Positions 23,822 through 50,598 of a stretch of 64,000 bases of DNA are shown in pieces (the stretch's first letter is position 1; every line of letters starts with the position of its first letter). This DNA comes from Thermodesulfobacteriota bacterium (GTDB lineage Bacteria > Desulfobacterota_D > UBA1144 > Nemesobacterales > Mycalebacteriaceae), in contig OZ245366.1 of NCBI GenBank assembly GCA_965226585.1, forward strand, positions 640,001 to 704,000. Direction: 5' to 3'. Position numbers and translations under genes: made by a program. A model generated the notes under the pieces. The model did not search any database. It worked only from the letters and a program-made list of their open reading frames with translations, and was not told the origin of the DNA.

Positions 23822-23826
23822 GTGTC

Positions 23827-25302: not shown

Positions 25303-27738
25303 ATGAAATCAAAAAGAGTATATGAACTTGCCAAAGAGTTCGGCGTTGAAGGCAAAGACATAATAGCCGCCGCCAAAGAAATTGGCGTCCGTTTTTCAAC
25401 AAGTTCAAACGCGGTTGACGCCACCACCGAGGACAGGTTGAGAAACATCTTTAACTCCGCTCAAGCCGCCGCTTCTCAAAAACCCCCGGATGAAGACGGA
25501 CAGCAGGCGGACGGAAAGAAAGTTGTCATAGATTCAGCGGACGGGAAGATTACCGAAAAACGTTCGGCGGACAGAGTTGTCCGGCGCAGAAAGAAAGCCG
25601 ACAAAGCCCCGGACGCTCCCGAAACGGAGGAGGCGGAAGCCGCTCAACCTGAAGAATCCGCCGCTTCTGCGGAAACTCCGCCCGCTTCTGCGGAGACGCC
25701 CGCAAAAGCCGCGCCCAAGAAAGCCGCCGCTCCGAAAAAGGAGAAAGAGGCGGAAGAGTTTGACCCTGAAAAAGAGAAACTCGCCCAGCAGATGAAAGCC
25801 GCTCTGGCTCCAAGTTTGAAACACGAAAAGCTTTCCTCTCCGCCACAGCCCAGAGTTGCCGGACGCAAAAAAGAGTATGTTGTTGATGAAAAAAATCTCC
25901 GCAGAAAACAGATTCCCAGAAAGAAAAGACCCATGCCGGGGCAGACTCCTTCGGCTCCGTCTCCCGCCGCTCCGCCCGCCGGGAAAAAGAGTGTTACCAT
26001 CGGGGAAACCATAATGCTTGACGACCTTGCGCGCCGTATGGAGGTGAAACTTCAGGACGTGAGGGCAAAGGCGAGAGGGCTTGGCGTTGACACGCGCTCC
26101 CGCAATCCGTTTGACTACGAAGTTGCCACCCTGATAGCGGCGGAATACGGTCTTGAGGTTGAGGTGGACAGGTTTGACGAGAGCATCTATCTGGACGATG
26201 CCGGGGCGGGTTTCGGTTCTGAAGAGCCGCGTCCTCCGGTTGTAAGCGTTATGGGGCATGTTGACCACGGAAAAACCACCCTGCTCGACACCCTGCGAAA
26301 CGCAAGCGTTGCCCCCGGAGAGGCGGGCGGAATCACACAGCACATCGGGGCGTACAAGGTCAAATCCGGCGACAGAGAGATAGTGTTCATAGACACTCCG
26401 GGACACGAAGCGTTCACGGCGATGAGGGCGCGAGGGGCTGGCATAAACGATTTGGCGATACTGGTTGTCGCCGCAGATGACGGCGTGAAAGAGCAGACGG
26501 TTGAGGCAATCAGCCACGCGAAAGCGGCGGGAGTTCCCGCCATTGTTGCCGTCAACAAAATAGACAAAGAGGGCGCGGACACGGAAAACGTAAAAAGGCA
26601 GTTGTCCGAACACGGGCTTGTGTCTGAAGAGTGGGGCGGCGACACGTTGTTTGCGGAAATATCCGCGAAAACCGGCGAAGGGCTTAAAGACCTTCTTGAA
26701 CTCATAATTCTTCAGGCGGATATTCTTGAACTGAAAGCGCCGGGCACGGGGCAGGCGCGCGGGATTGTTCTTGAATCGCGTCTTGACAAGGGGCGCGGGG
26801 CGATAGCGGATGTGATTGTTACAAAGGGCAGTCTGAAAGTTGGCGACCAAATGGTGGCGGGGCTTTTCAGCGGAAAGATACGCGCGCTTTCAGATGAAAG
26901 CGGCTCAAAAGCTGTAAACGCGGGACCCTCAATGCCGGTGGAGGTTATGGGGCTTTCCGGAGTGCCGGACGCGGGAGAAAACTTTTACATAGTCGGAGAC
27001 GAGAAAACCGCCCGCGCCATAGTTGAAAACCGGCGCACGGAAGCCGAGCAGAAAGATGCCCCGTCTGTTCCCCAGCCCCTGTCTCTTGACTCAATAGAGA
27101 TGACGAACCCGCCCGAAGAAAAAGGCAAGGAACTCGCCCTTGTCATCAAAGCAGACACTCAGGGTTCGCTTGAGGCGATTAAAGATTCCATCGCGAAAAT
27201 AGATTCTGACAAATGCTCAATAAAAATCGCGCACTCGGCGGCGGGCGGCATAAGCGGCACGGATGTTGAACTCGCCTACGTGACAGACGCGGTGATATTC
27301 GGCTTCAACGTCCGCCCCGATTCAAAAGCGGCGGCAGACGCAGACAAGCGGGAAGTGGCGGTGGAAACGTATTCCATCGTGTACGAGATTGTGGAAAGAG
27401 TAAAACAGATGATGGAGGGAATGCTTGACCCCGTGATTGAAGAGGAAACGATTGGACACGCGCAGGTGAAAGAGGTTTTCCGTATGTCGGGGCAGAAGAT
27501 TATCGCGGGCTGTTTTGTTGATGACGGCAAGGTTCAGAGAGGGGAGAGCGTTCGCATAGTGAGAGAGGGCGCGGTTGTGTACGAGAGCAAAGTCGGCTCG
27601 CTAAAACGTTTCAAAGACGATGTGAGAGAGGTGCAGTCGGGCTACGAATGCGGACTCACGATAGAGAATTTCAACGATGTAAAAGTGGGAGATGTGCTTG
27701 AGGTGTACTCCGTGAAGGAAACCGCACAGCAACTTTGA
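25303..27738 (+). CDS. infB: Translation initiation factor IF-2
   Basis: [30 protein letters not shown] and [12 protein letters not shown] motifs. Confidence 0.98.
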
Positions 27739-27750
27739 CGGGAGACGCAG

Positions 27751-28110
27751 GTGGGCGGCGGAAGCGGACTTAGTTATGAGAGAAGGGAGCGGGTGAAAGA
27801 CCTTATCATGAGGGAGATAGCCCGCATAATAAGCGAGGGCAACATAAGAGACAGGCGTGTTTCCGGCGCGGTTATAACGGATATTTCGCTTTCAAGGGAT
27901 ATGTCTTACGCGAAGGTGTTTTTTACAAATATGAAAGGCGGCGGCAATGAGGCGATGGAAAAGGCGTTTGAAAAACTGTCGGGGTTTTTCCGCAGGCAGA
28001 TAGCTGGACGGCTGGATATGAGAAAGGTTCCCGAAATACAGTTTGTTCCCGATGACGTGGCGCAATCCGCCCGCAGAGTGGACGACATACTGAGACGGAC
28101 TGAAAATTGA
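27751..28110 (+). CDS. rbfA: Ribosome-binding factor A
   Basis: RRERV, IRDRR, SRDMSYAKVF and MRKVPEIQFVPD motifs; follows infB. Confidence 0.93.
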   Translation: MGGGSGLSYERRERVKDLIMREIARIISEGNIRDRRVSGAVITDISLSRDMSYAKVFFTNMKGGGNEAMEKAFEKLSGFFRRQIAGRLDMRKVPEIQFVPDDVAQSARRVDDILRRTEN

Positions 28111-29078
28111 ACGCGCCTTCACACATAACTGAGATACTTGAGAAAGGGCGGAGTTTTCTGCTCACCTCGCACAAAGATCCCGATTCAGACGCGCTCGGCT
28201 CCATGCTCGCCCTTGCTGAACTGCTTGAATCACGCGGCAAATCCGTTTCTCTCCACTGCACGGGCGGAGTGCCGTCTTTTCTCAACTTCCTTCCGGGCTC
28301 TGAAAAGATAAGCGGCGGCATTCCCTCCGGCGCGGAGTTTGACGCCCTTGTTGTTCTTGACTGCCCGCACCCTTCCCGCGCCGGAGAGGATTTTGAGAAA
28401 TACGCCGCGTCATCATCCGCCCCTCTTGTGATAATAGACCATCACGAGCCGAAAGAGGTTGAGGGGGCGGTCAAGTGGGCTGACCCTTCCGCGCCCGCGA
28501 CCGGAATTCTTGTGCACGCCATTTTCAAATCGTTTTCCGCTCCCTTCACAAAACAGAGCGCGACCTGCGTGTACGCGGCAATTTCCGGAGACACGGGCTC
28601 TTTCAGGTTTTCAAACACCACTTCGGAATGTTTTGACATAGTGTCTGAGATGGTTTTGGCGGGCGCGTCTCCGCAAGAGGTGTCAAGCGAGATATTTGAA
28701 AATCAGACACGCGAGCGTCTCACGCTTCTGGGGCGGGTTCTTGAAACGCTCACAACCGATGACACCGGCAAAGTCGCCTGGGTTCGCATAGACAGGGAAA
28801 CATTTGAGTCCACCCGCACATCAAGGGAAGACAGCGAGGGAATGGTTGATATTCCGATGAGTTTGAAGGGAGTGCGGATAGCCATGCTTTTCAGGCAGGA
28901 GACGGCAAAAGGCAAAACGTTCTGGAAGGCGAGCATAAGGTCTCGCGGCAACACAGACGTTGCCAAGGTCGCGTCCGTGTTCGGGGGCGGCGGTCACAAA
29001 AACGCGGCGGGCTTCACATTTGAGGGCGATTTTGACAAACAGATAGGCAGGGTGCTTGATGAAATTAACGCCGCCTGA
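28107..29078 (+). CDS. nrnA: DHH/DHHA1 phosphoesterase (NrnA-like nanoRNase)
   Basis: HKDPDSDALGS, IDHH, DTGSF, SIRS and GGGGHKNAAG motifs. Confidence 0.92.
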   Translation: MNAPSHITEILEKGRSFLLTSHKDPDSDALGSMLALAELLESRGKSVSLHCTGGVPSFLNFLPGSEKISGGIPSGAEFDALVVLDCPHPSRAGEDFEKYAASSSAPLVIIDHHEPKEVEGAVKWADPSAPATGILVHAIFKSFSAPFTKQSATCVYAAISGDTGSFRFSNTTSECFDIVSEMVLAGASPQEVSSEIFENQTRERLTLLGRVLETLTTDDTGKVAWVRIDRETFESTRTSREDSEGMVDIPMSLKGVRIAMLFRQETAKGKTFWKASIRSRGNTDVAKVASVFGGGGHKNAAGFTFEGDFDKQIGRVLDEINAA

Positions 29079-29252
29079 CACACGTTTTTACAAACTGGAA
29101 AAGTTTTGCGGGGGTGATATACTCCCGCTGTTCCTTGAACGGGAAGCGCCGAAGTTCTTTTGCGGGTTTTCGCCCGCAGTTTCCGCTGATACTGCCGGGG
29201 TGGGATTTTTCAGAAAGTTCGGTTTGCATTAAATAAACTGGAGGATTGCGAA

Positions 29253-29522
29253 TTGCCTTTGGACAAAGACGTGAAGAAAAAAGTTATAGATGAGTTTGCC
29301 TCAAAGCCCGGAGACGTGGGCTCTTCGGCGGTTCAGATAGGCATACTCTCAAAACGGATAGAGCAGATATCCGCCCACACGGAAAAGATGAAAAAAGACG
29401 TTCATTCGCGCAGAGGGCTTGTGCGGCTTGTCGCGAAAAGAAGGAAACTTCTGAATTACATGAAGAACAACACTCCGGAGAAATACGCGGAGATTATCAA
29501 GGCGCTTGGTCTCAGACACTAA
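29253..29522 (+). CDS. rpsO: 30S ribosomal protein S15
   Basis: DVGSSAVQI and KKDVHSRRGLVRLVAKRRKLLNY motifs. Confidence 0.98.
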   Translation: MPLDKDVKKKVIDEFASKPGDVGSSAVQIGILSKRIEQISAHTEKMKKDVHSRRGLVRLVAKRRKLLNYMKNNTPEKYAEIIKALGLRH

Positions 29523-29547
29523 GGCGTCATACAAAGGAGATTGAAAC

Positions 29548-31653
29548 TTGGCGGAAAAAACAGTTGAGAAAAACCTTTTCGGCTCTAACTACAAAATAGA
29601 GACGGGAACGGTTGCCAGACAGGCAAGCGGCGCGGTAATGATGCGCTGTGAAGACACGGTTGTTCTTGCGACCGTTGTTGCGGAGGCGGGCAAGATAGAC
29701 GAGGATTTTCTTCCGCTCACGGTCAATTATCAGGAGAAAACATACGCCGCCGGAAAGATACCGGGCGGATTTTTCAGAAGAGAGGGAAGACCCTCGGAGC
29801 AGGAGATTCTTACCTCCCGCCTTATAGACCGCTCCATCAGACCGCTTATAACAAAGAAGTTCACCTATCCCACGCAGGTGATGATAACGGTTCTTTCCGC
29901 AGACATGAAAGCGGATCCCGGAGTGCTTTCCGCAACTGCGGCTTCGGCGGCTCTCACCCTTTCAGATGTGCCGTTTGAAGGACCCATTGCCGGGGTGAAA
30001 GTGGGCAGAATAGGCGGACAGCTTGTTTGCAACCCGTCATACGAAGATCTGGAATCAAGCGACATAGACATCGTTGTTACCGGAACGGCGGACGCGATAG
30101 TGATGGTTGAGGGCGGAGCTAACGAGGTTTCCGAGCCCGACATAATTGAAGCCCTCATGTTTGCCCACGACCGCATAAAAGAACTGGTTGACTTGCAGAA
30201 GGAGCTTGCCGAAGGCATTGCTTCGGAGAACAGGGTTCTTGAAGACACGGACGAAAGCGGCGAGCCGTCAGAAATGCTGTCGGCGGTGCGTGATTTTGCC
30301 GGCTCTCTTCTTGAGCAGTCGGTTGTTCAGGCGTCCAAAGATGTTCGCCGCGCTGAGATATCCAAACTGCGCGCGCAGACGCTTGAAGAGGTTGGCAAGC
30401 GGTTTCCCGAACAGGAAGGCGCGCTCAAAAACGCTTTTGATAAACTCACAAAAGAAACGGTGCGTTCGCTGATAGTTGACAAGGGTGTCCGCCCCGATTC
30501 ACGCGACTGCACAACCATCAGGAACATAGATTCCAGTGTCGGGCTGCTTCCGCGTTCGCACGGTTCCGCCCTTTTCACACGCGGAGAAACGCAGGCGCTT
30601 GTGGTTGCAACGCTTGGAACTTCGTATTACGAGCAGAGGATAGACTCCCTTGAGGGCGACCTTAAAAAAAGTTTTATGCTTCACTACAATTTCCCGCCTT
30701 ATTCGGTTGGGGAAACCAGTTTCCGCCTTGCTCCCGGACGCAGGGAGATTGGTCACGGCGCACTTGCCGAGAGAGCGGTAAAGCCCCTGCTTCCGTCAAA
30801 AGAGGATTTTCCCTACACCATCAGGGTTGTTTCCGAGGTTCTTGAGTCAAACGGTTCATCGTCAATGGCGACTGTTTGCGGCGCTTCAATGGCTTTAATG
30901 GACGCCGGTGTGCCGATACGCGCCGCAGTTGGCGGCATAGCGATGGGGCTTATCAAAGAGGGTGACAAACTGGTGATACTTTCAGACATTCTTGGTGATG
31001 AAGACCATCTGGGCGACATGGATTTCAAGGTTGCCGGCACTGAGGCGGGGATTACGGCTTTACAGATGGACATAAAGATAGACGGTGTTACGAAAGAGAT
31101 ATTGTCAGACGCTTTAAGTCAGGCAAAAGACGCGCGTCTTCACGTGCTTGCCGAGATGGGTAAAACCCTTGGGTCTCCCAGCGAGGATATTTCCGCTCAC
31201 GCGCCCCGGATAATAACGACAAAGATACATCCCGATAAGATACGTGATGTGATTGGTTCGGGCGGCAAGGTCATCAACAAGTTGATAGAGGAGACCGGCG
31301 CGCAGATAGACATTCAGGATGACGGAAAGATATTGATTTCCTCGCCCGACAAAGAGTCATGCGACAACGCGCTTATGAGGATAGGGAAGATAATAGAGGA
31401 GATAGAGCCCGGCAAGGTATATTTCGGCAAGGTAAAGCGGGTGCTTGATTTTGGCGCGATAGTTGAGATGGACAACGGCAGAGACGGTCTTGTGCACATT
31501 TCCGAACTTGAAGAGGGCAGGGTGGAGAAGGTAACGGATGTCGTCAACGAAGGCGATGAGTTGCTTGTCAAATGCATTTCCAAGGAAAGAGATGGCAAAA
31601 TACGCCTCAGCCGCAAAGAGGCGCTTGACGAGAATATAGAGGATTATAAGTAG
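29548..31653 (+). CDS. pnp: Polyribonucleotide nucleotidyltransferase
   Basis: GKIPGGFFRREGRP, RREIGHG, ESNGSSSMA, GDMDFKVAG, and KH and S1 domains. Confidence 0.98.
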   Translation: MAEKTVEKNLFGSNYKIETGTVARQASGAVMMRCEDTVVLATVVAEAGKIDEDFLPLTVNYQEKTYAAGKIPGGFFRREGRPSEQEILTSRLIDRSIRPLITKKFTYPTQVMITVLSADMKADPGVLSATAASAALTLSDVPFEGPIAGVKVGRIGGQLVCNPSYEDLESSDIDIVVTGTADAIVMVEGGANEVSEPDIIEALMFAHDRIKELVDLQKELAEGIASENRVLEDTDESGEPSEMLSAVRDFAGSLLEQSVVQASKDVRRAEISKLRAQTLEEVGKRFPEQEGALKNAFDKLTKETVRSLIVDKGVRPDSRDCTTIRNIDSSVGLLPRSHGSALFTRGETQALVVATLGTSYYEQRIDSLEGDLKKSFMLHYNFPPYSVGETSFRLAPGRREIGHGALAERAVKPLLPSKEDFPYTIRVVSEVLESNGSSSMATVCGASMALMDAGVPIRAAVGGIAMGLIKEGDKLVILSDILGDEDHLGDMDFKVAGTEAGITALQMDIKIDGVTKEILSDALSQAKDARLHVLAEMGKTLGSPSEDISAHAPRIITTKIHPDKIRDVIGSGGKVINKLIEETGAQIDIQDDGKILISSPDKESCDNALMRIGKIIEEIEPGKVYFGKVKRVLDFGAIVEMDNGRDGLVHISELEEGRVEKVTDVVNEGDELLVKCISKERDGKIRLSRKEALDENIEDYK

Positions 31654-31667
31654 GGGGAGGGGAGGGG

Positions 31668-31928
31668 TTAACTCTTTTTCTTCTTTTTGGCTTTCTTTGC
31701 CAGTTTTTTATCGGTGAACATTTCTTGCGGGATGCCGGAACGCCTGATGATGTCTTTCAACGCTCCAACGGTTATGTCTTTCTTTGCGTGCTCTACAACT
31801 ACAACACTTCTGCCGAACTGATCTTTGTACACATGGTGACTGCCTTTCGTTCTTTGGTACACAAACCCGTTTTGCATAAGAATTTCTCTCACATCTGCAA
31901 AACGCAGGGGAACAATACGTTTACTCAC
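31668..31928 (-). CDS. hicA: HicA-family mRNA interferase toxin
   Basis: L..NGF..QRTKGSHHVY...VVV..H.KDI..GALKDI.R.SG. Confidence 0.9.
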   Translation of the reverse strand: MSKRIVPLRFADVREILMQNGFVYQRTKGSHHVYKDQFGRSVVVVEHAKKDITVGALKDIIRRSGIPQEMFTDKKLAKKAKKKKKS

Positions 31929-31931
31929 AGC

Positions 31932-32192
31932 TTATGAGTAATTGTGAATGGTGAGGGACAACGGTCTGACTTCAACTGCGTTATCTCCCATAACTTCCTG
32001 TGCGGAGTCAAAGACTTCCGCCCTTTCTTCTTCCGTCATTTCCTCAAAGTAGAGGCTTGCCGATTTTTTGAGGTTGGCAAACGCCTCTTCCGCCGTCTCG
32101 CCGTAACTTGAAATATCTGTTCCATCAATACGAGATGTGAAGGCATCACCGTCTCGCCACACAATAACACGACACTGTTTTTCCATAGCCAT
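31932..32192 (-). CDS. hicB: HicB-family antitoxin (short, no obvious DNA-binding domain)
   Basis: ISSYGETAEEAFANLKKSASLY motif; strong RBS AAGGAGG. Confidence 0.85.
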   Translation of the reverse strand: MAMEKQCRVIVWRDGDAFTSRIDGTDISSYGETAEEAFANLKKSASLYFEEMTEEERAEVFDSAQEVMGDNAVEVRPLSLTIHNYS

Positions 32193-32210
32193 TCCTCCTT
32201 AACGCAGTTA

Positions 32211-32240
32211 ATTGTAAGCGGAGAGTATGTTACCTGTCAA
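32211..32240 (-). promoter_or_regulatory. sigma70 promoter of hicBA
   Basis: TTGACA-N18-TACAAT on the minus strand. Confidence 0.65.
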
Positions 32241-32248
32241 TCAGAAGT

Positions 32249-32496
32249 CCGCAGGAATGACGCTTCCCCCTCCGTCATTCCGTGCCTGTCTCCTTCCCGT
32301 CATTCCGTGCCTGACACGGAATCCAGTATTCAACTGGTTAATCAATACTGGATTCCTGCTTTCGCAGGAATGACACTCCCCACTTCCGTCATTCCGTGTT
32401 TGTCTCCTTCCCGTCATTCCGTGCTTGACACGGAATCCAGTATTCAACTGGTTAATCAATACTGGATTCCTGCTTTCGCAGGAATGACGGGGAGGG
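32249..32496. repeat. Palindromic repeat cluster A (2 full 76-bp units at 32299-32374 and 32413-32488, plus half-units)
   Basis: Unit GTCATTCCGTGCYTGACACGGAAWCCAGTATTCAACYGGTTAAYYAATACTGGATTCCTGCTTYCGCAGGAATGAC. Confidence 0.97.
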
Positions 32497-32509
32497 TAGC
32501 AAAACCGGC

Positions 32510-32869
32510 TTACCCTTTCAAATTCCTTCTAATATAAACCACTGCAAACAACACGCCGATAGCGGCGGCGGTTATGGGGAACAGCCATACCACAAGGTTA
32601 AACCCTTTCAGCGGCGGTTCGGCGAGGATGCCGTCGCCGTATTTCGTGCGGAACCATGAGATAATCTCCTCATCGGAAACGCCTTCTGATACCTTTCTTT
32701 TTATGATTTCACGCATATCCCGCGCAAGCTGGGCGTTTGATTCGGCAACAGATTGCCCCGCGCATACCGGACACATCAACTGCCGCGCAATGGCGTCCAC
32801 ACGGTCTGCCTGCGTTTCCGCCGAAACGGGAAGGGCGATTAGACAGATAAGTAAAAGGAGTTTCATCAT
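32510..32869 (-). CDS. ccmH: Cytochrome c biogenesis protein CcmH (N-terminal redox domain)
   Basis: LMCPVCAGQSVAESNA, EII.WF..KYG..ILAEPP and a C-terminal TM. Confidence 0.92.
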   Translation of the reverse strand: MMKLLLLICLIALPVSAETQADRVDAIARQLMCPVCAGQSVAESNAQLARDMREIIKRKVSEGVSDEEIISWFRTKYGDGILAEPPLKGFNLVVWLFPITAAAIGVLFAVVYIRRNLKG

Positions 32870-32872
32870 TTT

Positions 32873-33289
32873 TCAGGGGGAGATAACTTGAAGATTTGGA
32901 AAGTACGGCTTGAAGGTCTGTTTGTCTCGTGTGAGCAGTGTCCACCCCATTACATCGGCGTGCGCGCCTATGTAGAAATCGGGCATTACGGAAGCTTTTA
33001 TCTTGCCCCTGTTTTGTTTTTTGTATAAGCGATAACTTTGTCCGGCAACAAAAGCGGCATCGTACGGGAGATACTCTTTTTGAAAGAGATTTGTTGAGAG
33101 GAATTTGTCCAATTCTGAAGCATTGCTGAAAGATGCGGAGATTTCGGCGTAAATGATAGGGTTAACCACAAGTGTTGAGTCTTTAAGTGCTTTTTCAATG
33201 GCATTGCGAGTCCAGTTTATCCATTGAGTCTCTTCCTTAAGCAGGTCGATTATAACGTTACTGTCAACAAGTGTGGGTGGCATTTGCAT
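32873..33289 (-). CDS. vapC: PIN-domain toxin (VapC family)
   Basis: LVDSNVIID, NPIIYAE, MPDFYIGAHA and LLTRD motifs. Confidence 0.92.
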   Translation of the reverse strand: MQMPPTLVDSNVIIDLLKEETQWINWTRNAIEKALKDSTLVVNPIIYAEISASFSNASELDKFLSTNLFQKEYLPYDAAFVAGQSYRLYKKQNRGKIKASVMPDFYIGAHADVMGWTLLTRDKQTFKPYFPNLQVISP

Positions 33290-33301
33290 TGTGTGTGTGG
33301 C

Positions 33302-33727
33302 TCAATCCCAGGGCCAAGTTTTGATCCATGCGTCAATCTCTTCACGGGACAAGGGCTTTCCCTGCCTGTGTTTGGGTCTGGGGGGTCTGGGAGGGATGTT
33401 AGGTTTGATGTCATCACCCACCTCGTTCACCTTTCTGCCTCTCATCATCAGCATAACTTCGTCAGCACTTGGGATATCGCCTCTGTCTTTCAATCTCTTC
33501 GACCATTTCTTAAAGTGCGCAACTATGTCTTTGCCACGCGAGTCGGGGCTTTTTTCGCGCAGTTCCTGTGCCTTCTCACCTTGAGTTTGGTCTTTATAGG
33601 CGGGCTTTTTGACGATTTTGACTTCGTTTCCGTCCATAACAACATCCACTTCGGTATCGGGCGAAAGCCCCGCTTTCTCTCGTATCTCAGCGGGTATTGT
33701 TATCTGTCCCTTTTTTGTTATACGCAT
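33302..33727 (-). CDS. AbrB/MazE/SpoVT-family antitoxin with an extended C-terminus
   Basis: MRITKKGQITIPAEIREKAGL; directly upstream of the PIN toxin. Confidence 0.88.
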   Translation of the reverse strand: MRITKKGQITIPAEIREKAGLSPDTEVDVVMDGNEVKIVKKPAYKDQTQGEKAQELREKSPDSRGKDIVAHFKKWSKRLKDRGDIPSADEVMLMMRGRKVNEVGDDIKPNIPPRPPRPKHRQGKPLSREEIDAWIKTWPWD

Positions 33728-40126: not shown

Positions 40127-40356
40127 TTCCGTGCCTGTCTCCTTTCCGTCATTCCGTGCCTGACACGGAAACCAGTATTCAACCGGTTAAACAATACTGG
40201 ATTCCTGCTTCCGCAGGAATGACGAAGGGGAGTGTCATTCCGTGCTTGACACGGAAACCAGTATTCAACTGGTTAACCAATACTGGATTCCTGCTTCCGC
40301 AGGAATGACGAAGGGGGGCAGGAATGACGGGGAGGGGCGGGAGTGACGGGGAGGGG
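40127..40356. repeat. Palindromic repeat cluster B (units 40148-40223 and 40234-40309, plus GGARTGAC half-sites)
   Basis: Same 76-bp unit in the same orientation. Confidence 0.97.
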
Positions 40357-40926
40357 CTAAGCCGCGACTCGCTTTGCTTCTTGAAAAGCAATCGGGTCGA
40401 GAGTATGCTCCGCACCGGTTGTCCATTTCTCAACGGATTCTGATATTAAGGCAACCGCCAAAATAACAGGCACAAAGGGAGCAAGAAGTATCAGCAACAA
40501 CGGAGAAGTTCTGAGAATATGCTTTCCGACCTCTGTTGACATGCGTTCAAAGTACTTCAATATTACTTTCTGAACTTCAGGGCTCAACAAATCAATTTCG
40601 CCATTTAACCTGTCCGTAAACGCCCGCCCCTCGCGCTCAACACGTTTTCTCTCAAACAGAAAGGTTAAGAGAAGACCAAGCAACGTTATCTTGCCCGCAA
40701 AACGTATGTAGCCGTTCATCAGCGTTCTGAGAGTTCCGTATGCGGGGTGGTTGAAGTCAATGTTGCCATCTGCGGCGTAGTCAAACATCTCATCCCTGAT
40801 TTCAAAAATTCTCTGTTTGAAGCCGTCAACAAGGGCGCGTTTGAGACCGAAAGACCAGACAGCCCAGGTGATTAAAAGAATTAAAAACGAAAACATTACA
40901 TTTGCTTTTTCAGCAGTAAATTCCAT
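40357..40926 (-). CDS. Uncharacterised membrane protein (3 hydrophobic segments)
   Basis: 189-aa ORF; D.FKQRIF.IRDEMFDYAA.G...F.HPAY..LR..MNG.IRF block; its stop codon abuts cluster B. Confidence 0.75.
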   Translation of the reverse strand: MEFTAEKANVMFSFLILLITWAVWSFGLKRALVDGFKQRIFEIRDEMFDYAADGNIDFNHPAYGTLRTLMNGYIRFAGKITLLGLLLTFLFERKRVEREGRAFTDRLNGEIDLLSPEVQKVILKYFERMSTEVGKHILRTSPLLLILLAPFVPVILAVALISESVEKWTTGAEHTLDPIAFQEAKRVAA

Positions 40927-40927
40927 A

Positions 40928-41260
40928 TTAAACCCCTTTGGTAGCGGCTCCGTCCGCCGCCCCTATGCTACCGGAACTTCTGGAATCGTCAAACTTTTTC
41001 TCCAGCTCACGTATCCTGTCTTCAAGGTATTTTGTTTTCCACATTCTTATAGACCTTTCGTAGATTGCCCAAGAGAAGAATGCGACACACATGAGTAAAA
41101 GCGAAACCTTTACGCCATCTTTGCTTCCCAATGTTGAGAGGACAACATCAACGACAATACTTGTGTCAGTTCCTTTGATGTCTTTCAGGGTCAGATACGC
41201 AATGTAGAACATGGCAACTCTGCCCGCCTGAACAAGAAATGTTTCAATAGTTTTTCCCAT
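40928..41260 (-). CDS. Uncharacterised 2-TM protein with a coiled-coil tail
   Basis: 110-aa ORF with a 1-nt gap to the downstream gene; upstream promoter. Confidence 0.7.
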   Translation of the reverse strand: MGKTIETFLVQAGRVAMFYIAYLTLKDIKGTDTSIVVDVVLSTLGSKDGVKVSLLLMCVAFFSWAIYERSIRMWKTKYLEDRIRELEKKFDDSRSSGSIGAADGAATKGV

Positions 41261-41294
41261 GCCGATTTACGACCGGAGCAACTGCTCGGGGGCA

Positions 41295-41323
41295 ATTTTA
41301 ACCCGACAAACTCCCATTTTCAA
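41295..41323 (-). promoter_or_regulatory. sigma70 promoter for the 41260-40357 cassette
   Basis: TTGAAA-N17-TAAAAT on the minus strand. Confidence 0.6.
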
Positions 41324-41332
41324 TTCTCAAGC

Positions 41333-41552
41333 CTCTCCTTCCGTCATTCCGTGCTTGACACGGAAACCAGTATTCAACCGGTTAATTAATACTGGATTCC
41401 TGCTTCCGCAGGAATGACGGAGGAGTGTGTCATTCCGTGCTTGACACGGAAACCAGTATTCAACTGGTTAATTAATACTGGATTCCTGCTTCCGCAGGAA
41501 TGACGGAGGGGAGGGGGTGGAATGACGGAGGGGCGGGAGTGACGGGAAGGGG
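41333..41552. repeat. Palindromic repeat cluster C (units 41343-41418 and 41429-41504, plus half-sites)
   Basis: Same 76-bp unit in the same orientation. Confidence 0.97.
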
Positions 41553-41561
41553 TTAATAGCC

Positions 41562-41590
41562 TTGACTATGGTTTTCTGCTGGATTAACAT
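41562..41590 (+). promoter_or_regulatory. sigma70 promoter for the 41600-42100 cassette (near-leaderless)
   Basis: TTGACT-N17-TAACAT, 9 nt before the ATG at 41600. Confidence 0.6.
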
Positions 41591-41599
41591 TTTCCTGCT

Positions 41600-41806
41600 A
41601 TGAACAGGAATGTTCCACGGAATCAGGAAGAAACTACAAGGACTCTTGCCGCAGTTATTGGCGGCGCGTTGCTTGGGGTTGCGGTTGGCGGTCCCGTTGG
41701 CGCGGTTGTCGGCGGAGCTGTGGGTCTGATTGCGGGGCAGAAAACGAACAATTCATTAAGAAAGAAGAATGGTCACGACCGACCATCAGAAAAAACCAAG
41801 TTTTAG
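41600..41806 (+). CDS. Small glycine-zipper protein
   Basis: 68 aa; GGALLGVAVGGPVGAVVGGAVG (repeated GxxxG) followed by a basic tail. Confidence 0.7.
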   Translation: MNRNVPRNQEETTRTLAAVIGGALLGVAVGGPVGAVVGGAVGLIAGQKTNNSLRKKNGHDRPSEKTKF

Positions 41807-41809
41807 AAT

Positions 41810-42100
41810 ATGAGCGGGATGTACATTCTTTATATTGCCACGGCAGTGTTGGGGCTTGTTCTTACAGGCTTTTACTTGTTACGTTGTCGCAAGTATAGCG
41901 TGAGTGTGAACGGTTCCGTGATTATCACTCTCTTCTTGCTTGCCGGTGGTTTACTGGGCGGTTTTGCTCTTATGGTAAGCCTCTTTCTCCCGGAAGTGCG
42001 GGACATTCCCAAGTTTGATGAATATGTCTTCATTGGCGGAATTTCTATGACAGTATATGTATCCAGCAAGATATACGGCATCCTCAAGTTTCTTCAGTAA
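41810..42100 (+). CDS. Small 3-TM membrane protein
   Basis: 96 aa with three hydrophobic segments, starting 3 nt after the glycine-zipper gene. Confidence 0.7.
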   Translation: MSGMYILYIATAVLGLVLTGFYLLRCRKYSVSVNGSVIITLFLLAGGLLGGFALMVSLFLPEVRDIPKFDEYVFIGGISMTVYVSSKIYGILKFLQ

Positions 42101-42111
42101 TCCTCTCTTTT

Positions 42112-42457
42112 TCCGTCATTCCGTGCCTGACACGGAAACCAGTATTCAACTGGTTAATCAATACTGGATTCCTGCTTCCGCAGGAATGACGGGGGAGTGT
42201 GTCATTCCGTGCCTGACACGGAAACCAGTATTCAACTGGTTAACCAATACTGGATTCCTGCTTCCGCAGGAATGACGGAGGAGTGTGTCATTCCGTGCCT
42301 GACACGGAATCCAGTATTCAACCGGTTAATTAATACTGGATTCCTGCTTCCGCAGGAATGACGGAGGAGTGTGTCATTCCGTGCCTGACACGGAAACCAG
42401 TATTCAACTGGTTAACCAATACTGGATTCCTGCTTCCGCAGGAATGACGGGAAGGGT
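42112..42457. repeat. Palindromic repeat cluster D (4 tandem units: 42115-42190, 42201-42276, 42287-42362, 42373-42448; 86-bp period)
   Basis: 76-bp units separated by a near-constant 10-bp GGRGGAGTGT linker. Confidence 0.97.
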
Positions 42458-42459: not shown

Positions 42460-43581
42460 CTAGTCCGCAACCTTCCTGAACAATTCCGCGTATTTTCCCG
42501 TCATTTTCTCAATACTGAAAAAACTCTCGGCGCGGGTTGCGCCGGACTTTGCCATTACATTCGCAAGAACGGGGTTCTCTATCATTTTTAATATCGCCTC
42601 CGCCATCTTTTCCGCATCTCCCACGGGAACAAGCAAACCATTCTCGCCATCACGGATTATCTCACTTGCCGCAAATTTGTAGTCCGTTGAAATACACGGA
42701 ACCCCAAGACACTGCGCTTCAAGAAGCGTGTTCCCAAACCCCTCATAAACAGACGGCTGAACATATACGTCCGCAAGGGCGATTAACGGATACGGATTTA
42801 CCATCTCCCCCGCAAATATAATCGCGTCATCAATTCCCATGCCTCGCGCACGCTCCTCAAGCGAACCCCTTAACTTCCCGTCTCCCACAAGCAACAGACG
42901 CGCATCGCCGCCTTTTTCCGCCATGCTTTTTTTCACTAAGGAAAAAGCGTCTATTAAAGTGTCAAAACCCTTCTGCCTTACAAACCGCCCCACAGACACA
43001 ACTACGGGAATTCCCGCGCCCGTTTCCATATTCACGCGCTGTTTGCTTTTTTCCCTCGCCAGAGCCGTGTCCACGCCGTTGTGAATTACTTGGGGAACCA
43101 CACCCCCGTACACCTCAACACACTCTCCCGCCAAACCCTCTGATATGGCGGTGAAACTATCCGCCCTCTGCGCGAAAAAACGGTGAAGAAAAAACATCAA
43201 CCAATTGCGCTCCCTTAAAAAACCTATGTTGTTTCCCTCAGTCCATACGGTTTTAATCCCAAATATACGCCCGGCGACTGTGTTGAGTATTTTTGTCCAG
43301 TGCCTTGAATAAAGAACATCGGGCTTTTCTCTTATCACCGCCCGAAAAAACGCGCATGAACCCCACAAACGGGAAAGAAAATGGAATCGTTTTACAAAGG
43401 CGGGATAACAGGGGGTCAGCAATTTCACGCCGGAAGCAATTTCACCCTCAATTCCGCCGCCGCCCAAAGCGAACACAACACAGTCAAACTCCCCGCAAAG
43501 CCCGTTCGCAATGGCAACCGTCTGCCTCTGCGCGCCGGCGGTATTTAAGTTCGGCAAAGAAAAAAGGATTTTCTTTCTCAA
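42460..43581 (-). CDS. Glycosyltransferase family 4 (paralog of 38907-40052)
   Basis: AGAQRQ, IHNGVD, VGRFVRQKGF, NPYP, EGFGNTLLEAQ and STDYKF motifs; TTG start overlapping the upstream stop. Confidence 0.92.
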   Translation of the reverse strand: MRKKILFSLPNLNTAGAQRQTVAIANGLCGEFDCVVFALGGGGIEGEIASGVKLLTPCYPAFVKRFHFLSRLWGSCAFFRAVIREKPDVLYSRHWTKILNTVAGRIFGIKTVWTEGNNIGFLRERNWLMFFLHRFFAQRADSFTAISEGLAGECVEVYGGVVPQVIHNGVDTALAREKSKQRVNMETGAGIPVVVSVGRFVRQKGFDTLIDAFSLVKKSMAEKGGDARLLLVGDGKLRGSLEERARGMGIDDAIIFAGEMVNPYPLIALADVYVQPSVYEGFGNTLLEAQCLGVPCISTDYKFAASEIIRDGENGLLVPVGDAEKMAEAILKMIENPVLANVMAKSGATRAESFFSIEKMTGKYAELFRKVAD

Positions 43582-44786
43582 TCGTGCCTCAACGCCTCCA
43601 CGGGGTTGAGTTTTGCGGCTTTGCGGGCGGGGTATATGCCGAAACCCACACCAACTGCGGCGGAGAAAAGACACGCTATCGCTATCGCGCCGAAAGATAT
43701 CTCAACGGGCCAGCCCGTGAACAGAGACGATACTTTTGAAATCACCGCCCCAAGCACAATTCCCACCGCTCCGCCCGCAAGAGACAGCGAAAGAGACTCA
43801 ACAAGAAACTGCCTCAATATGTCGCTCTCCCTCGCGCCCACAGCCATTCTTATCCCTATCTCCTTTGTCCGCTCGCTGACGGAAACAAGCATTATGTTCA
43901 TAATCCCCACACCGCCGACTATCAGCGATATGGACGCGATGCTGATGAGCAAAATTCTCAATATCCGCGTTACAACGGCTATGCGCTCAAGGTTCTGAGC
44001 GTTGTTTCTGATAACAAAATCGTCTCTCTGCCCCGGCTCTATGCCGTGATTTCGTCTCATAAGAGACGCAATCTCAACAAATACCGTATCCATCATTTCA
44101 GAGTTTTTTACGGCAATCGAAATTTTTGATAGATGCTTTACCGAAAGAATCCGCTTTTGAACCGTTGAATACGGCATAAGAATTATGTCGTCCTGATCTG
44201 CCCCGCCCGGCTTTGCCCCCAGTTTCTGCATAACACCCGCAACCGTGCAGGTTACGCCGCTTATCCGTATCTTTCCGCCCGCCGCCGGAGACGCCCCGAA
44301 CAGTTTTTCCGCCACAGTTGCCCCGATAACACACACCGAACGCGAGTTCTCAATGTCATCCGCGCTGAAAAATGTTCCCGCGCCCGGAAACCAGTCGTTT
44401 ATGAAAGTGAACGAGCGCGAAACGCCTACAATCTCCGTTGCCCACTGGTTTTTGCCGTAGACCGCAAGACCCTTTGTTCTGATAATCTCGGAAACAAACT
44501 CAACATCGGGCATTTCCCTTATGGAATTCGCGTCTTTAACCGTGAGGGGTTTGCCGCCGGCAAGGTTGAGAAGCCCGCCGCCCGTGCGCAAGGGGCTTAT
44601 TATCATCGCCTTGCCGCCCAGCCGCTCGAACTGCTCGCCTATCATCCTGCTTGCCCCCTGTGTTGTGGACACAAGCGAAACAACCGCCGCCACTCCGATT
44701 ATTACTCCGAGAGAGGTCAGCATTGAACGCGCTTTGTTCGACATTATCGCCCGGTAGGCGACCGTCAGAGATCTGAAAGGTTGCAT
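43578..44786 (-). CDS. MacB/FtsX-family ABC permease
   Basis: RSMLTSLGVIIGVAAV, VGGVGIMNIMLVSVSERTKEIGIRMAVGA and YPARKAAKLNPVEALR motifs. Confidence 0.95.
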   Translation of the reverse strand: MQPFRSLTVAYRAIMSNKARSMLTSLGVIIGVAAVVSLVSTTQGASRMIGEQFERLGGKAMIISPLRTGGGLLNLAGGKPLTVKDANSIREMPDVEFVSEIIRTKGLAVYGKNQWATEIVGVSRSFTFINDWFPGAGTFFSADDIENSRSVCVIGATVAEKLFGASPAAGGKIRISGVTCTVAGVMQKLGAKPGGADQDDIILMPYSTVQKRILSVKHLSKISIAVKNSEMMDTVFVEIASLMRRNHGIEPGQRDDFVIRNNAQNLERIAVVTRILRILLISIASISLIVGGVGIMNIMLVSVSERTKEIGIRMAVGARESDILRQFLVESLSLSLAGGAVGIVLGAVISKVSSLFTGWPVEISFGAIAIACLFSAAVGVGFGIYPARKAAKLNPVEALRHD

Positions 44787-46838: not shown

Positions 46839-49800
46839 GTGTCTAAAAACTTAGCCTTACTCACCCTGCTTTCTTTCTTATTCACATTTTCCGCGCCGCC
46901 CTCTTATGCGCAGGAACCAGGAGTCTGCTACTACCACATCATCAACCCCTACTCAACATCCCTCCCCAGCACCATAGAACCCATAATGTCGGCCGATTGC
47001 CCCAGAGCGGACGGAAACGCATACCTCACCATTTTTTCAATCGCCCCTAATGATCATTACATAAATTCAACTAATGCCGCTATTTCGTACTACCCCACCC
47101 AAGCGGGCGCAAATACAATCATTTACGTTGGAGGTTTCAATATCACAACGGTACAACCAGACGGAGAATCTATATTTATCAATACCCCGGGGAACGGCCT
47201 TTTAGATATCGCTGACAGCGTGTTTATCACCAAACGCGGAACCGGCGGAAATGTTGTTACCATCACAGCCGGAACGGGTGATGTGGATATAGACATTTAC
47301 AATCAATCAAAAGTTCAAATTGAATCAACCGGCGGCGGGAACGGAATTGTCGCGTCAAGCGAAAGCGGAAGAGTGCTTGCGGACTTCTCCAATCAGGGAA
47401 GAATCTATTCAGTCCAAGATGACGCGACCGGGTTTATCGCAACAACCAACGGCGGTGAAATCAGCGCGAATTTTGACGGTTTGTATTCAAGAATACTTAT
47501 GTACCCTGTAGGCAATCACGCGGGCTCATCAGACTCCAAAGGCGCGACATTCACAAGCACAAGCGGCGATATAAGTGTTTCGCTGACAAACTCCTCGGCA
47601 ATCCTAGCCCCGTCTCTGGGAGATTCCCACGGCTTGGAGGCGGTAACGGGAGGGGACGGCGACATAAACATACATTTGCAAAATGGAAACGCCTGCATAG
47701 TCGGCAGAGACGGGGTTAAAGCCACCACTGTTGACGGCGACATAAACATATATCTGTCAGACGCGCTTATTCGCGGCAGGGGCAGAACGGGTTTGTCTGC
47801 AACATCTACAAACGGAGATATTACAATCACGGGAGATGGCACGGGCAATATTGCCTCTGTTGCTGGTAACGGCGTTTATCTTGACACCGGCGGTGAGGCA
47901 AGCATCAGCAATATTGATATATGGACGCAAGGAGATGGCGGCACAACAATAGAATCGGCAAGCGGCTTGCATGTAGTATCGGGAAATATCTGGGCTAACG
48001 GTTCGGGCGGCAATACGGTGGAAGCGGGAACTGTGAATGTGTCGGGCGGAGATATTTTTACGACAGTCCATAACAGCAATGCGGTGGTTGCGCAGGCGGT
48101 GAATATATCGGGCGGAGGGATTTGGATGCTCAGAGGCGGTTCATCAGAGAGCATTTTCAGTACCGCTGTGCTTCTCAGAAACGAAGACGGGCAAGCGGAA
48201 TTGACGGTTGGAGGAAGCGCGATTGTGTGCGGCGGTGCGCTTTCGGGCATAATCTGCACGGCAAGCGACTATGGCTATGCCGTGCGTGTTGAGACCCCGG
48301 CGGCGACCTATGGCACAACGATAACAACCGAACCCACCGGCAATATAACGGGCAGAATTGGGCTTTCTAACAACAACGATGTTTTCTACAACAATGGCTC
48401 TTTCACCGGACACGGAAACACCAGAGGCGGTGATGACATGGTTGAAAACAAGGGAACTTTCACCCTCACCGGAGATTTTGAAATGGGTGAAGGCGATGAC
48501 ACTTTTGAAAACAAAGACAGCGGAATGGTAGTTTATGGCAACCACTCAATAATCGCAGAAACCAAGCCTGATCCACCCTCCACGCAACAATCCTCTCCTT
48601 CCCGTCATTCCGCATCTTCACCATCCCGTCATTCCGTGCTTGACACGGAATCCAGTATTCAACTGGGTTACCCAATACTGGATTCCTGCTTTCGCAGGAA
48701 TGACGGAGAGGGCAGGAATGGCGAGAGTGGGGAATGTCATTCCGTGCTTGACACGGAATCCAGTATTCAACTGGCTAATCAATACTGGATTCCTGCTTCC
48801 GCAGGAATGACGGAGAGGGCAGAAATGACGGAAGGGGCGGGAATGACGGAGGGGGCAGCAAGCGGCGACAGCCGTTTCCGCCTTTCCGCATCAGACCCCG
48901 CCCCTGACGACACAACCGCAACCATTAACTTCGGCGATGGCGATGACCATTTCATAAACAACGGCACAATCGTAATTCAAGATACAGGCGGATTTAACGG
49001 CTTGGAGAAAATAACCTTCGGCGAAAACTCAACCGTTATGGTTACCGCAGACTCTGCCAAAATGACGACAGACAAACCCCTCATAGAACTTGAAGGCGAG
49101 ATAACTGCGGAAGATGTTAAAGACCTAAACATAAAATTAGCCAACCCTGAAAGACATTCAGACGAATTTTCTTTATTCAGCGAAAACTCTTTGCCTGACG
49201 GTGAAGCCGAAAGACAGGCGGTATTGAGCATGATAAGCGGCGGTCTTGGTGAAGGCAGTAGCGCGGGAGTGGATTCAAACGGCAATATATTTGTTGTGCT
49301 TGCCAATTCCGTTCACTTTAACTACCTGAGAAATTATGACGCAATGATCCAATCCGCTTACCACTCAGACACAAGTTTCTCAGAAAAACTGCGCGGCAGT
49401 TGTTACGGCGGGGAAGCGGAGACACAACATTTAAGCGGCGGCTGTCTCTGGGCAGATGCGGGAAGCCGTCACACGAGACACGACACAAAGGTTAAATACG
49501 GAGAAGACGCCTATGTATTTGCCGGAGGTTTTTCCATCCCCGCAGGGCAGTCCGCCGTGTCAATCGGAGCGGGTTATGAAACATCAGACTTTAATGCCGG
49601 AACTGATACAAACGCGGCGGGTGAGCGTTTTATGGCAGGGTTATCAGTAGCAGGTGAGATTTGGAAAAGAATTATCGCAGACGCAAGAACACAATTTGCA
49701 AAAGCGGCATGGGAATCAACATCCGCAAGGGGAGAAGACACTTATTCCGCAAAGACGGATATAACAACATGGTCTGCCGCAATAGGGGCAGAGATGCCGT

Positions 49801-50234
49801 TTTTCCCCGGTGGTGTATTTATGGTGGTTCCGCGTCTTGAAGCGGGAGTAGCCCGTGTATCTGCGGACAGTTTCACCGAAACCGGCGGCGGAGATATGCC
49901 TCTTTCTGTTGAAGGATTATCACAAACATATTTGCGTGTAACTCCATCGGTAACTGCTTATGCTCCCGCAGGGGAAAGTGTGAATATGTGGATGACCGCC
50001 GGAGCGGATGCTCATTTAACAGACCCCAAGACAGACTTAAAAGCTACCTTTTCTCCTGATGACCCTGTAAATACAAAAGGCGGACTTGAACGCATAAACA
50101 TAAGATACAGCGCGGGGGCTGAGGTAAATCCGGTAAAAGGTGTAAGTGTGCGGGTGGCGTATAGCGGCGGGGTTTCCACTACCTTTGATACGCTTACGCA
50201 GACATTTACGGCAAGGTTCGGAGTGGCGTTTTAA
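46839..50234 (+). CDS. Autotransporter (type Va) adhesin-like outer-membrane protein carrying an in-frame repeat insertion
   Basis: Signal peptide (PSYA/Q), Gly/Thr/Asn-rich beta-helix-like passenger, GDD-x-F-x-N-x-G repeats and a C-terminal amphipathic barrel ending in Phe. Confidence 0.88.
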   Translation: MSKNLALLTLLSFLFTFSAPPSYAQEPGVCYYHIINPYSTSLPSTIEPIMSADCPRADGNAYLTIFSIAPNDHYINSTNAAISYYPTQAGANTIIYVGGFNITTVQPDGESIFINTPGNGLLDIADSVFITKRGTGGNVVTITAGTGDVDIDIYNQSKVQIESTGGGNGIVASSESGRVLADFSNQGRIYSVQDDATGFIATTNGGEISANFDGLYSRILMYPVGNHAGSSDSKGATFTSTSGDISVSLTNSSAILAPSLGDSHGLEAVTGGDGDINIHLQNGNACIVGRDGVKATTVDGDINIYLSDALIRGRGRTGLSATSTNGDITITGDGTGNIASVAGNGVYLDTGGEASISNIDIWTQGDGGTTIESASGLHVVSGNIWANGSGGNTVEAGTVNVSGGDIFTTVHNSNAVVAQAVNISGGGIWMLRGGSSESIFSTAVLLRNEDGQAELTVGGSAIVCGGALSGIICTASDYGYAVRVETPAATYGTTITTEPTGNITGRIGLSNNNDVFYNNGSFTGHGNTRGGDDMVENKGTFTLTGDFEMGEGDDTFENKDSGMVVYGNHSIIAETKPDPPSTQQSSPSRHSASSPSRHSVLDTESSIQLGYPILDSCFRRNDGEGRNGESGECHSVLDTESSIQLANQYWIPASAGMTERAEMTEGAGMTEGAASGDSRFRLSASDPAPDDTTATINFGDGDDHFINNGTIVIQDTGGFNGLEKITFGENSTVMVTADSAKMTTDKPLIELEGEITAEDVKDLNIKLANPERHSDEFSLFSENSLPDGEAERQAVLSMISGGLGEGSSAGVDSNGNIFVVLANSVHFNYLRNYDAMIQSAYHSDTSFSEKLRGSCYGGEAETQHLSGGCLWADAGSRHTRHDTKVKYGEDAYVFAGGFSIPAGQSAVSIGAGYETSDFNAGTDTNAAGERFMAGLSVAGEIWKRIIADARTQFAKAAWESTSARGEDTYSAKTDITTWSAAIGAEMPFFPGGVFMVVPRLEAGVARVSADSFTETGGGDMPLSVEGLSQTYLRVTPSVTAYAPAGESVNMWMTAGADAHLTDPKTDLKATFSPDDPVNTKGGLERINIRYSAGAEVNPVKGVSVRVAYSGGVSTTFDTLTQTFTARFGVAF
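48593..48856. repeat. Palindromic repeat cluster E, intragenic (units 48628-48704 [77 bp] and 48736-48811, plus half-sites)
   Basis: Same unit, translated as HSVLDTESSIQL twice within the autotransporter ORF. Confidence 0.97.
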
Positions 50235-50598
50235 TACTGGATTCCTGCTTTCGCAGGAATGACGGGGAAGGGCAAGGAATGACGCTTCTCACCACTCCGT
50301 CATTCCGTGTTTGTCTCCTTCCCGTCATTCCGTGCTTGACACGGAATCCAGTATTCAACTGGTTAGTTAATACTGGATTCCTGCTTCCGCAGGAATGACA
50401 CTCCCCACTTCCGTCATTCCGTGCTTGACACGGAATCCAGTATTCAACTGGTTAATTAATACTGGATTCCTGCTTCCGCAGGAATGACACTCCCCACTTC
50501 CGTCATTCCGTGCCTGACACGGAATCCAGTATTCAACTGGTTAACCAATACTGGATTCCTGCTTTCGCAGGAATGACGGGGGGGGGGGCAGGAATGAC
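50231..50598. repeat. Palindromic repeat cluster F (right half-unit 50231-50263; full units 50324-50399, 50413-50488, 50502-50577)
   Basis: Same unit with an 89-bp period; begins at the autotransporter stop codon. Confidence 0.97.

Follow-up and report, generated by a model that had tools for sequence, protein, structure and literature searches.

According to the available excerpts of Chenal et al. 2025 (PMC11893778), the NTS repeats of Neisseria (CGTCATTCCCGCGMAVGCGGGAATCYRG) form clusters around membrane-protein genes, and the resulting NTS-gene-NTS layout lowers transformation through the cutting of single-stranded DNA by SsnA. NIME arrays, composed of dRS3 and RS repeats, were proposed as recombination substrates, with array-flanked genes inserting into chromosomal arrays (Bentley et al. 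2007, PMC1797815). Minimal mobile elements consist of a conserved gene pair that encloses whole-gene cassettes differing by strain and exchanged by homologous recombination (Saunders & Snyder 2002; Snyder et al. 2007, as cited in PMC3082526), and CGTC-REPs are described as hairpins with an 8–9-bp stem, A-T in the first two pairs, a loop of 4–5 nucleotides (nt) and a CCA-like tail (Di Nocera et al. 2013, PMC3733652); these papers, too, are cited from the excerpts available. Here, we analyzed a 64,000-nt window from a Thermodesulfobacteriota bacterium (assembly GCA_965226585.1, contig OZ245366.1, positions 640,001–704,000, forward strand), in which three tandem hairpin-repeat arrays, B, C and D (window positions 40,127–42,457), enclose two two-gene modules between two GT4-type glycosyltransferase genes, GT4a and GT4b. 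The initial annotation of this window had interpreted the repeats as integron-like sites that capture and excise gene modules. The host genome, termed G000 (1.48 Mb, one contig), was compared with its five congeners, among them G001–G004; positions refer to the window unless a genome is named.

By their sequence, the arrays are gene-less miniatures of the genome's own ssn unit, that is, CGTC-tagged inverted hairpin pairs of the Ssn/NTS-SRM and CGTC-REP kind. Each unit begins with GTCATTCC, followed by hairpin 1 (TTCCGTG/CACGGAA), hairpin 2 (CCAGTATT/AATACTGG), hairpin 3 (ATTCCTGC/GCAGGAAT), GAC and a G-rich linker. Hairpin 1 reads CGTC-ATTCCGTG-CCTGA-CACGGAAT-CCAG, and the reverse complement of hairpin 3 reads CGTC-ATTCCTGC-GGAA-GCAGGAAT-CCAG; both outer hairpins carry a CGTC tag, an 8-bp stem starting with AT, enclosing a loop of 5 or 4 nt, and a tail of CCA; read outward they take the form CGTC-ATTCC...GGAAT-CCAG, which resembles NTS as given in the excerpted PMC11893778. 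The last base of the hairpin 1 stem is A in B, C and D, disrupting the first pair. Two identical 96-amino-acid (aa) small single-domain GIY-YIG open reading frames (ORFs; PF01541, 58.3 bits) are present in G000 at 1333306-1333596 and ~1209377-1209664. Each sits exactly in the hairpin 2 loop of a unit (CCAGTATT-gene-AATACTGG), with hairpin 3 upstream (CGTCATTCCTGCGAAAGCAGGAATCCAG) and hairpin 1 downstream (the reverse complement of CGTCATTCCGTGCCTGACACGGAATCCAG), and the 86-nt unit therefore corresponds to an ssn unit minus its gene. The GIY-YIG protein itself gave no NCBIfam match and no PDB sequence match.

Comparison within the genus placed this unit beside the published repeats. The G001 ssn protein is 68% identical to that of G000, and the G001 ssn genes are flanked by the exact published NTS consensus, which ties the G000 protein indirectly to SsnA of N. 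meningitidis (CDD cd10448); none of the 11 exact NTS copies of G001 is more than 2 kb away from these genes, and 24 SRM-pattern matches were counted in that genome. G000 has no NTS and carries 129 hairpin-1-type and 128 hairpin-3-type copies (~257) in 68 clusters, and neither a small GIY-YIG gene nor NTS was found in G003. Between the two ssn genes of G001 (G001 1388716-1390672), ~110-nt tandem repeats each combine an NTS with ~65 nt from the start of the ssn reading frame. The locus had been put forward as the best candidate in the window for an undescribed system; its repeats are instead hairpin pairs from the ssn unit, of a kind published in the excerpted PMC11893778 and PMC3733652, and the locus reveals no new kind of system, its arrays joining the known Ssn/NTS-CGTC-REP kind.

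On balance, we lean toward a reading in which these ssn-derived arrays probably spread into gaps of a surface-polysaccharide locus that is prone to recombination, and in which gene capture probably did not require them. Horizontal transfer and ordinary homologous recombination would have brought the two modules into this locus, which is low in GC and varies between strains, and one array type would then have spread locally to three gaps or been duplicated during the insertions. As proposed for Neisseria NIME/NTS arrays, the arrays may now act as patches of shared homology, and Ssn is predicted to cut at them in single-stranded DNA from either strand; shared homology and predicted cutting together would split the locus into gene-sized pieces, biasing which of them are exchanged. 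ComEC and DprA are present in G000 and would permit DNA uptake. A dedicated gene-capture system is not supported.

The layout of the locus agrees with the initial description, in that co-oriented repeat clusters bracket two two-gene modules between paralogous GT4 genes (Table 1), which are 42% identical in protein sequence (136/324). Tandem Repeats Finder returned an 86-nt period at 40148-40316 (2.0 copies), 41343-41509 (1.9) and 42115-42450 (3.9), with 96–98% matches, and the window contains 15 occurrences of the unit's 24-mer core, every one on the + strand (0 expected from 100 shuffles). The gene pairs between B and C (-) and between C and D (+) point in divergent directions. Stop codons abut the clusters as first noted: that of the 189-aa gene (40357-40359) overlaps the end of the G-rich tail of B, that of the 96-aa gene (42098-42100) is followed immediately by the left end of D, and that of GT4b (42460-42462) lies just past the end of D. 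The sigma70 promoter assigned to each cassette near C was recovered in part, as promoter-like hexamers on both sides of C that are consensus matches only; they remain predictions because a scan of the region gave 6 sites, against 3.0 +/- 1.8 in shuffles. With its first GTG taken as the start, the GT4b ORF shares 97 nt (43578-43674) with the MacB-like gene; relatives align only from about residue 20-35, and the real start is therefore probably further downstream than 43674.

Table 1. Repeat arrays, genes and promoter-like sites in the window (window positions; aa, amino acids; nt, nucleotides; GC, G+C content; ORF, open reading frame)
Feature	Position	Strand	Remarks
Array A	32250..32495	+	2 units, 114-nt period; adjoins HicA-like pair
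GT4a glycosyltransferase, 381 aa	38907..40052	-	PF00534 8e-42, PF13439 9e-15; GC 45.6%
Array B	40127..40359	+	C/T-rich left end, 2 units of 86 nt (40148-40319), G-rich tail of GGAATGACGG-type sub-repeats (40299-40357)
Module 1, second gene	40357..40926	-	189-aa helical membrane protein
Module 1, first gene	40928..41260	-	110-aa membrane protein
Promoter-like site, module 1	41295..41323	-	TTGAAA-17-TAAAAT, 10/12; consensus match only
Array C	41330..41556	+	left end, 2 units of 86 nt (41343-41514), G-rich tail
Promoter-like site, module 2	41562..41590	+	TTGACT-17-TAACAT, 9/12; consensus match only
Module 2, first gene	41600..41806	+	68-aa glycine-zipper membrane protein
Module 2, second gene	41810..42100	+	96-aa membrane protein
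Array D	42101..42457	+	left end, 4 units of 86 nt (42115-42455), short G-rich tail
GT4b glycosyltransferase	42460..43674	-	PF13692 1.5e-38, also PF00534/PF13439 matches; ORF listed from GTG start
Array E	48628..48858	+	2 units, in frame inside 1131-aa autotransporter ORF 46839-50234
Array F	50231..50585	+	one partial and three full units (89-nt period among full units); 3' end of autotransporter gene

The B-to-D segment was then placed against the congeners. The block BT1-MacB-GT4b is kept in all five; G004 has GT4b and GT4a homologues 14 nt apart, followed by a flippase gene, G001 has two GT4 genes 8 nt apart beside MacB, and G002 and G003 have one GT4 gene each. The GT4a homologues of G001 and G004, 46–47% identical, adjoin the GT4b homologue, and GT4b homologues of 45–52% identity lie beside MacB in G002, G003 and G004. 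Since the GT4 homologues abut in G004 and G001, the 2.4-kb B..D segment represents a lineage-specific insertion. None of the four small module genes occurs at this site in the five congeners, with the 189-aa protein matched in 0 of 40 relatives and the 96-aa protein in 0 of 5 congeners, and no relative was found that holds the four genes here. From the GT2 gene through the 96-aa gene, G+C content (GC) is 41–46% (68-aa gene, 52%), compared with 50–53% in GT4b, MacB, BT1 and PNPase. An insertion of this sort would also be expected from array-mediated capture by homologous recombination, in which a module together with an array, as a circle or in linear form, integrates into a resident array, so that complete arrays in direct repeat end up on both sides of the module, and repetition builds B-module-C-module-D; against such capture, the empty sites of G004 and G001 contain no array.

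A second gap in the window, between pnp and ccmH, also differs between G000 and congeners. G001 and G003 carry a 335-aa MiaA-like gene there (L002 8537-9544; L004 3109-4116), and the G000 gap (31654-32510) is occupied instead by array A and by a HicA-like toxin gene with an 86-aa partner. The MiaA-like protein and Pfam IPPT had no match anywhere in the single-contig G000.

The initial annotation described the cassettes as pairs of small unknown membrane proteins. They do encode membrane proteins, but the 189-aa/110-aa pair belongs to a conserved two-gene family and is no orphan. The 189-aa protein has 10 homologues at 39–51% identity, matches phrog_13156 (1e-20) and shares the invariant core FRQ..F..RDEMF.YAA.GNIDFNHPAYGT with its family; its AlphaFold2 model is confident (pLDDT 82.8) and all helical, and a Foldseek search of PDB with this model returned nothing at E <= 0.001. 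Its homologues were collected at 98 loci (L007-L104) from genome and metagenome collections, mostly Acidobacteriota-like and soil records. Upstream sequence sufficed for this comparison at 88 of the loci; at 84 of them an ORF in the same orientation runs up to the beginning of the 189-aa homologue, and an iterated profile identified this ORF as a 110-aa homologue in 76 of the 84. The neighbors are unrelated housekeeping genes, and the 98 loci contain no SRM-like hairpins and the 9-base tag only 4 times (3.7 expected). Module 1 is a self-contained conserved two-gene operon that occurs in distant phyla without such repeats, which argues against array-mediated capture.

The 110-aa/189-aa pair belongs to no Pfam family, an ESM Atlas search with the 110-aa protein returned unnamed clusters only, and NCBIfam gave nothing above cut-offs for the four small module proteins. 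A match of the 189-aa protein to PADLOC PDLC02977 '1TM-TIR' (4e-6) was set aside as too weak for naming a function. In module 2, the 68-aa protein hit PF13441 and PF13488 below cut-offs and, with its N-terminal part, TIGR03789 (8e-11, also below cut-off); the 96-aa protein has one 96% identical copy, in a conspecific metagenome-assembled genome (MAG), and 23 weak relatives of ~100 aa.

Variation within the species was assessed in read runs and in this MAG. In run X4, from another study, contigs cross each array/module junction as in G000, with identities of 98.3% for GT4a, ~99.5% for module 1, ~99.8% for module 2, 99.4% from GT4b to BT1 and 89% in the flippase region. In runs X5 and X6, both GT4 genes and module 2 are present at ~97%, and module 1 is incomplete, with low cover of 40956-41309. 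In all read runs contigs end in repeats, and array-to-array joints are uninformative on excision because their shorter side spans at most 36 nt of a sequence repeated ~158 times; no circle or excision junction could be made out, and no run listed as containing the sequence is recorded as RNA. The MAG, from NCBI, is conspecific by PNPase (697/701) and CcmH (116/119), whose contig has the same length (74,939 bp) as that with the 96-aa gene, and was compared as a single genome through its proteins only. It keeps the 96-aa gene at 96%, and ten locus tags from that gene it encodes a 39% homologue of the 189-aa protein. Protein look-up found no cluster mate at >=90% on that contig for the 68-aa, 110-aa, MacB, FkbM, flippase or GT2 proteins, and searches with the 189-aa and GT4a proteins gave no close homologue on a contig of this length.

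Together, the differences in run X4 and the MAG indicate that gene content at the locus varies within the species, and on this genomic comparison both gene pairs are modules that were acquired by a glycan locus of variable content. The strain comparison called for at the outset gave two results: conspecific populations differ in content, and the X4 junctions are the same as those of G000. The first result, a MAG with a 39% homologue near its 96-aa gene and no close 189-aa or 110-aa gene, would suit array-mediated capture; the second, with every joint internal to repeats, speaks against it. The flippase and FkbM-methyltransferase part of the window (36000-38900) is ~89% identical and partly replaced in X4 between flanks of 98–99%, which suggests an O-antigen-like serotype switch region.

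Although the repeats were first viewed as a feature of this locus, an nhmmer profile detected 158 copies in 68 clusters across G000, concentrated in a few regions that hold giant ORFs. The genome-wide catalogue also bears on the premise that a repeat-bounded gene is a cassette, which did not hold generally. When 1382 longest-ORF calls of G000 were compared with the whole of G001 and G003, 40 inter-cluster segments of <=6 kb were found, 20 of them with whole ORFs: 13 contain only conserved genes, 6 only accessory genes and 1 both. The conserved syntenic genes bounded by arrays, which include those for a release factor and NAD kinase, count against capture, and 11 of the 68 clusters lie in gaps between genes that are neighbors also in G001 and/or G003. 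Furthermore, the inserts at 22-33 kb and 441-447 kb have arrays in inverted, not direct, orientation on their two sides. One accessory pair (96 aa and a 275-aa membrane protein; G000 1315224-1316379, L238 2725-3880) has no confident Pfam match and is bordered on each side by a single repeat copy, both copies in the same orientation; its flanking genes are conserved.

Several observations weigh against the spread of arrays into existing gaps, and one of them against the kinship with NTS. Among 30 multi-copy arrays, the 86-nt period occurs only in B, C and D, the other 27 having successive spacings of 60–163 nt; a T-to-A change is present in 7 of the 8 units of B, C and D and in 1 of 130 units elsewhere; and B and C are complete direct repeats of each other, each with a left end, two units and the same ~55-nt tail. 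Repeat-adjacent ORFs are enriched for accessory genes (59/98 vs 235/1284; odds ratio 6.75, obtained with a crude longest-ORF caller and from neighboring genes that are not independent). At least four G000-only, array-ended inserts of 6–15 kb occupy positions where the gaps of G001 or G003 measure 25–368 nt (for example 441390..447816, 1012024..1021875, 22264..33369 and 771453..786488 in G000), most of them holding long, autotransporter-like ORFs that have an array in the same orientation at the 3' end. Finally, the degenerate SRM pattern HGTCWYN(0-2)YYVSBRHN(0-5)WNVSBRGN(0-2)RNCYNB misses the G000 hairpins, giving 7 matches in the genome and 0 in the 68 clusters; five Markov-simulated genomes gave 4–10. 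We nevertheless relate the hairpins to the NTS kind because the ssn homologue of G001 carries exact NTS flanks.

The co-orientation and private characters of the three arrays, the near-duplication of B and C and the array-bounded inserts elsewhere are all in favor of array-mediated capture, and the same proposal has been published for NIME arrays, so that the mechanism, first presented as new, was already proposed for Neisseria (excerpts of PMC1797815). The claim that the repeats capture and excise modules accordingly retains the insertion, the shared characters of B, C and D and the variable content on its side and has against it the conserved genes that are equally array-bounded. Integration into a resident array and local spread of one element would each give the picture seen at B, C and D, which cannot separate them. 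Taken together, capture by homologous recombination appears unlikely, and a role of the arrays as recombination substrates is to be rated at that level or slightly lower. No more probable is a wider version in which Ssn-linked arrays would act as landing pads and array-flanked modules on incoming or excised DNA would recombine into any resident array, reshuffling surface and accessory genes.

The array ends constrain other histories. A single ancestral array split by internal insertions was rejected as unlikely because B, C and D each have their own left end and tail. A 'GGGGYTAA' boundary motif, which occurs at B and C and also behind the stop codon of pnp, was likewise rejected, since the right ends of other arrays do not have it; genome-wide, right ends are variable runs of GGAATGACGG-type sub-repeats with no common boundary motif. 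Mobilization catalyzed by Ssn, in which the GIY-YIG nuclease would cut at the hairpins and move array-flanked modules in a transposon- or integron-like way, draws on the hairpin-ssn-hairpin layout, which is like that of an insertion sequence (compare the excerpted PMC11893778), and on the expansion of the repeat family only in the genome with this ssn/hairpin variant. The array ends examined show no target-site duplications, however, the whole genome of G000 contains no second copy of either module (one match only), and Ssn is a single-strand nuclease with no strand transfer reported in the excerpts of PMC11893778, making this explanation highly improbable.

An RNA-level REP function was also weighed, in which the arrays would serve as hairpin barriers, attenuators or mRNA 3'-end stabilizers that insulate four transcription units, unrelated to gene gain. 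Arrays B and D lie at gene 3' ends and C between divergent promoter-like sites; the unit folds well as a single strand (-21.3 kcal/mol with DNA parameters, z -4.84), variation across 138 units is restricted to loops and linkers, and gene-downstream REPs are discussed as RNA elements in the excerpts of PMC3733652. By contrast, the arrays have no T-run terminators, Rfam has no family at them, and their orientation follows no fixed relation to gene direction, autotransporter genes excepted. Copies also occur in frame inside ORFs, 15 of the 68 clusters lying within long ORFs and each time oriented with the ORF, and the link with the ssn gene would be left unexplained; an RNA role is therefore very unlikely to account for the arrays. 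The units of array E are translated in frame, in the linker before an autotransporter beta-barrel (PF03797 at residues 871-1109).

The role of dRS3/NTS-type arrays has been a question in Neisseria for more than 20 years, and the first description of the nuclease reading them dates from 2025. The same layout, arrays around accessory membrane-protein genes in a surface-glycan locus, is now seen in a distant, uncultured, small-genome lineage. The genus provides a natural series, from G003 (no ssn or hairpins) through G001 (ssn and 11 hairpins beside the gene) to G000 (ssn and ~257 hairpins in 68 clusters), which lets repeat expansion be compared with gene gain. If the landing-pad version were true, the arrays would form a recombinase-free counterpart of the integron, and the 2007 NIME hypothesis would gain its first support from nature outside Neisseria.

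An integron is defined by an IntI-type tyrosine recombinase next to attI and by cassettes bounded by attC. This candidate was rejected, in line with the initial annotation, which had noted no attC or intI and cassettes in opposite orientations: no IntI was found in G000, where PF00589 occurs only at 627058 and 1063499 (53 kb and 381 kb from the locus), and the repeats are not attC-like. The likeness lies in the outcome only, short modules separated by structured repeats, whereas the G000 modules have their own promoter-like sites and opposite orientations, and the repeats bracket core genes too. REPIN/RAYT systems comprise a single-copy Y1 transposase gene flanked by GTAG-type REPs. They were rejected as well, as repeats are absent within 22 kb of the one PF01797 ORF of G000 (1393314-1394138), around which there is also no space for flanking copies, and the tag is CGTC and not GTAG; that ORF encodes a single-copy 274-aa IS200-like Y1 transposase-domain protein with a C-terminal helix-turn-helix and no link to the hairpin family.

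Minimal mobile elements may be comparable to the GT4b..GT4a site and the pnp..ccmH site, where a HicA-like pair stands in for miaA. The congeners have the GT4 flanks without the cassettes, and the conspecific MAG differs by protein look-up only; the definition, in the excerpts of PMC3082526, requires no repeats. The CGTC-REPs, including Rickettsia RPE-6/RPE-4, share tag, stem, loop and tail with the G000 hairpins, and they also form dimers with a structured spacer and have some copies inside genes. The available excerpts of PMC3733652 found no dedicated enzyme for them, whereas the G000 dimer is the shell of an ssn unit. NIME arrays match in that hairpin arrays of the CGTC-1 type lie between genes and are enriched beside variable surface genes (excerpts of PMC1797815); their RS spacers fall into more than 100 families, whereas the whole G000 unit is one conserved sequence, and the G000 host belongs to an uncultured lineage distant from Neisseria, Dadabacteria-like according to a source label on homologues.

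The closest counterpart is Ssn/NTS-SRM, in the terms of the excerpted PMC11893778. In both, a small GIY-YIG gene lies between inverted CGTC-tagged hairpins, hundreds of hairpins cluster around genes, many of them for membrane or surface proteins, in an 'NTS-gene-NTS' arrangement, and exact copies of the Neisseria NTS consensus surround ssn in the congener G001. The predicted G000 system differs in its stems, CCGTG and CCTGC, which fall outside the degenerate SRM pattern, and in the joining of two hairpins and a central palindrome into a fixed 86–160-nt unit that is tandemly arrayed.

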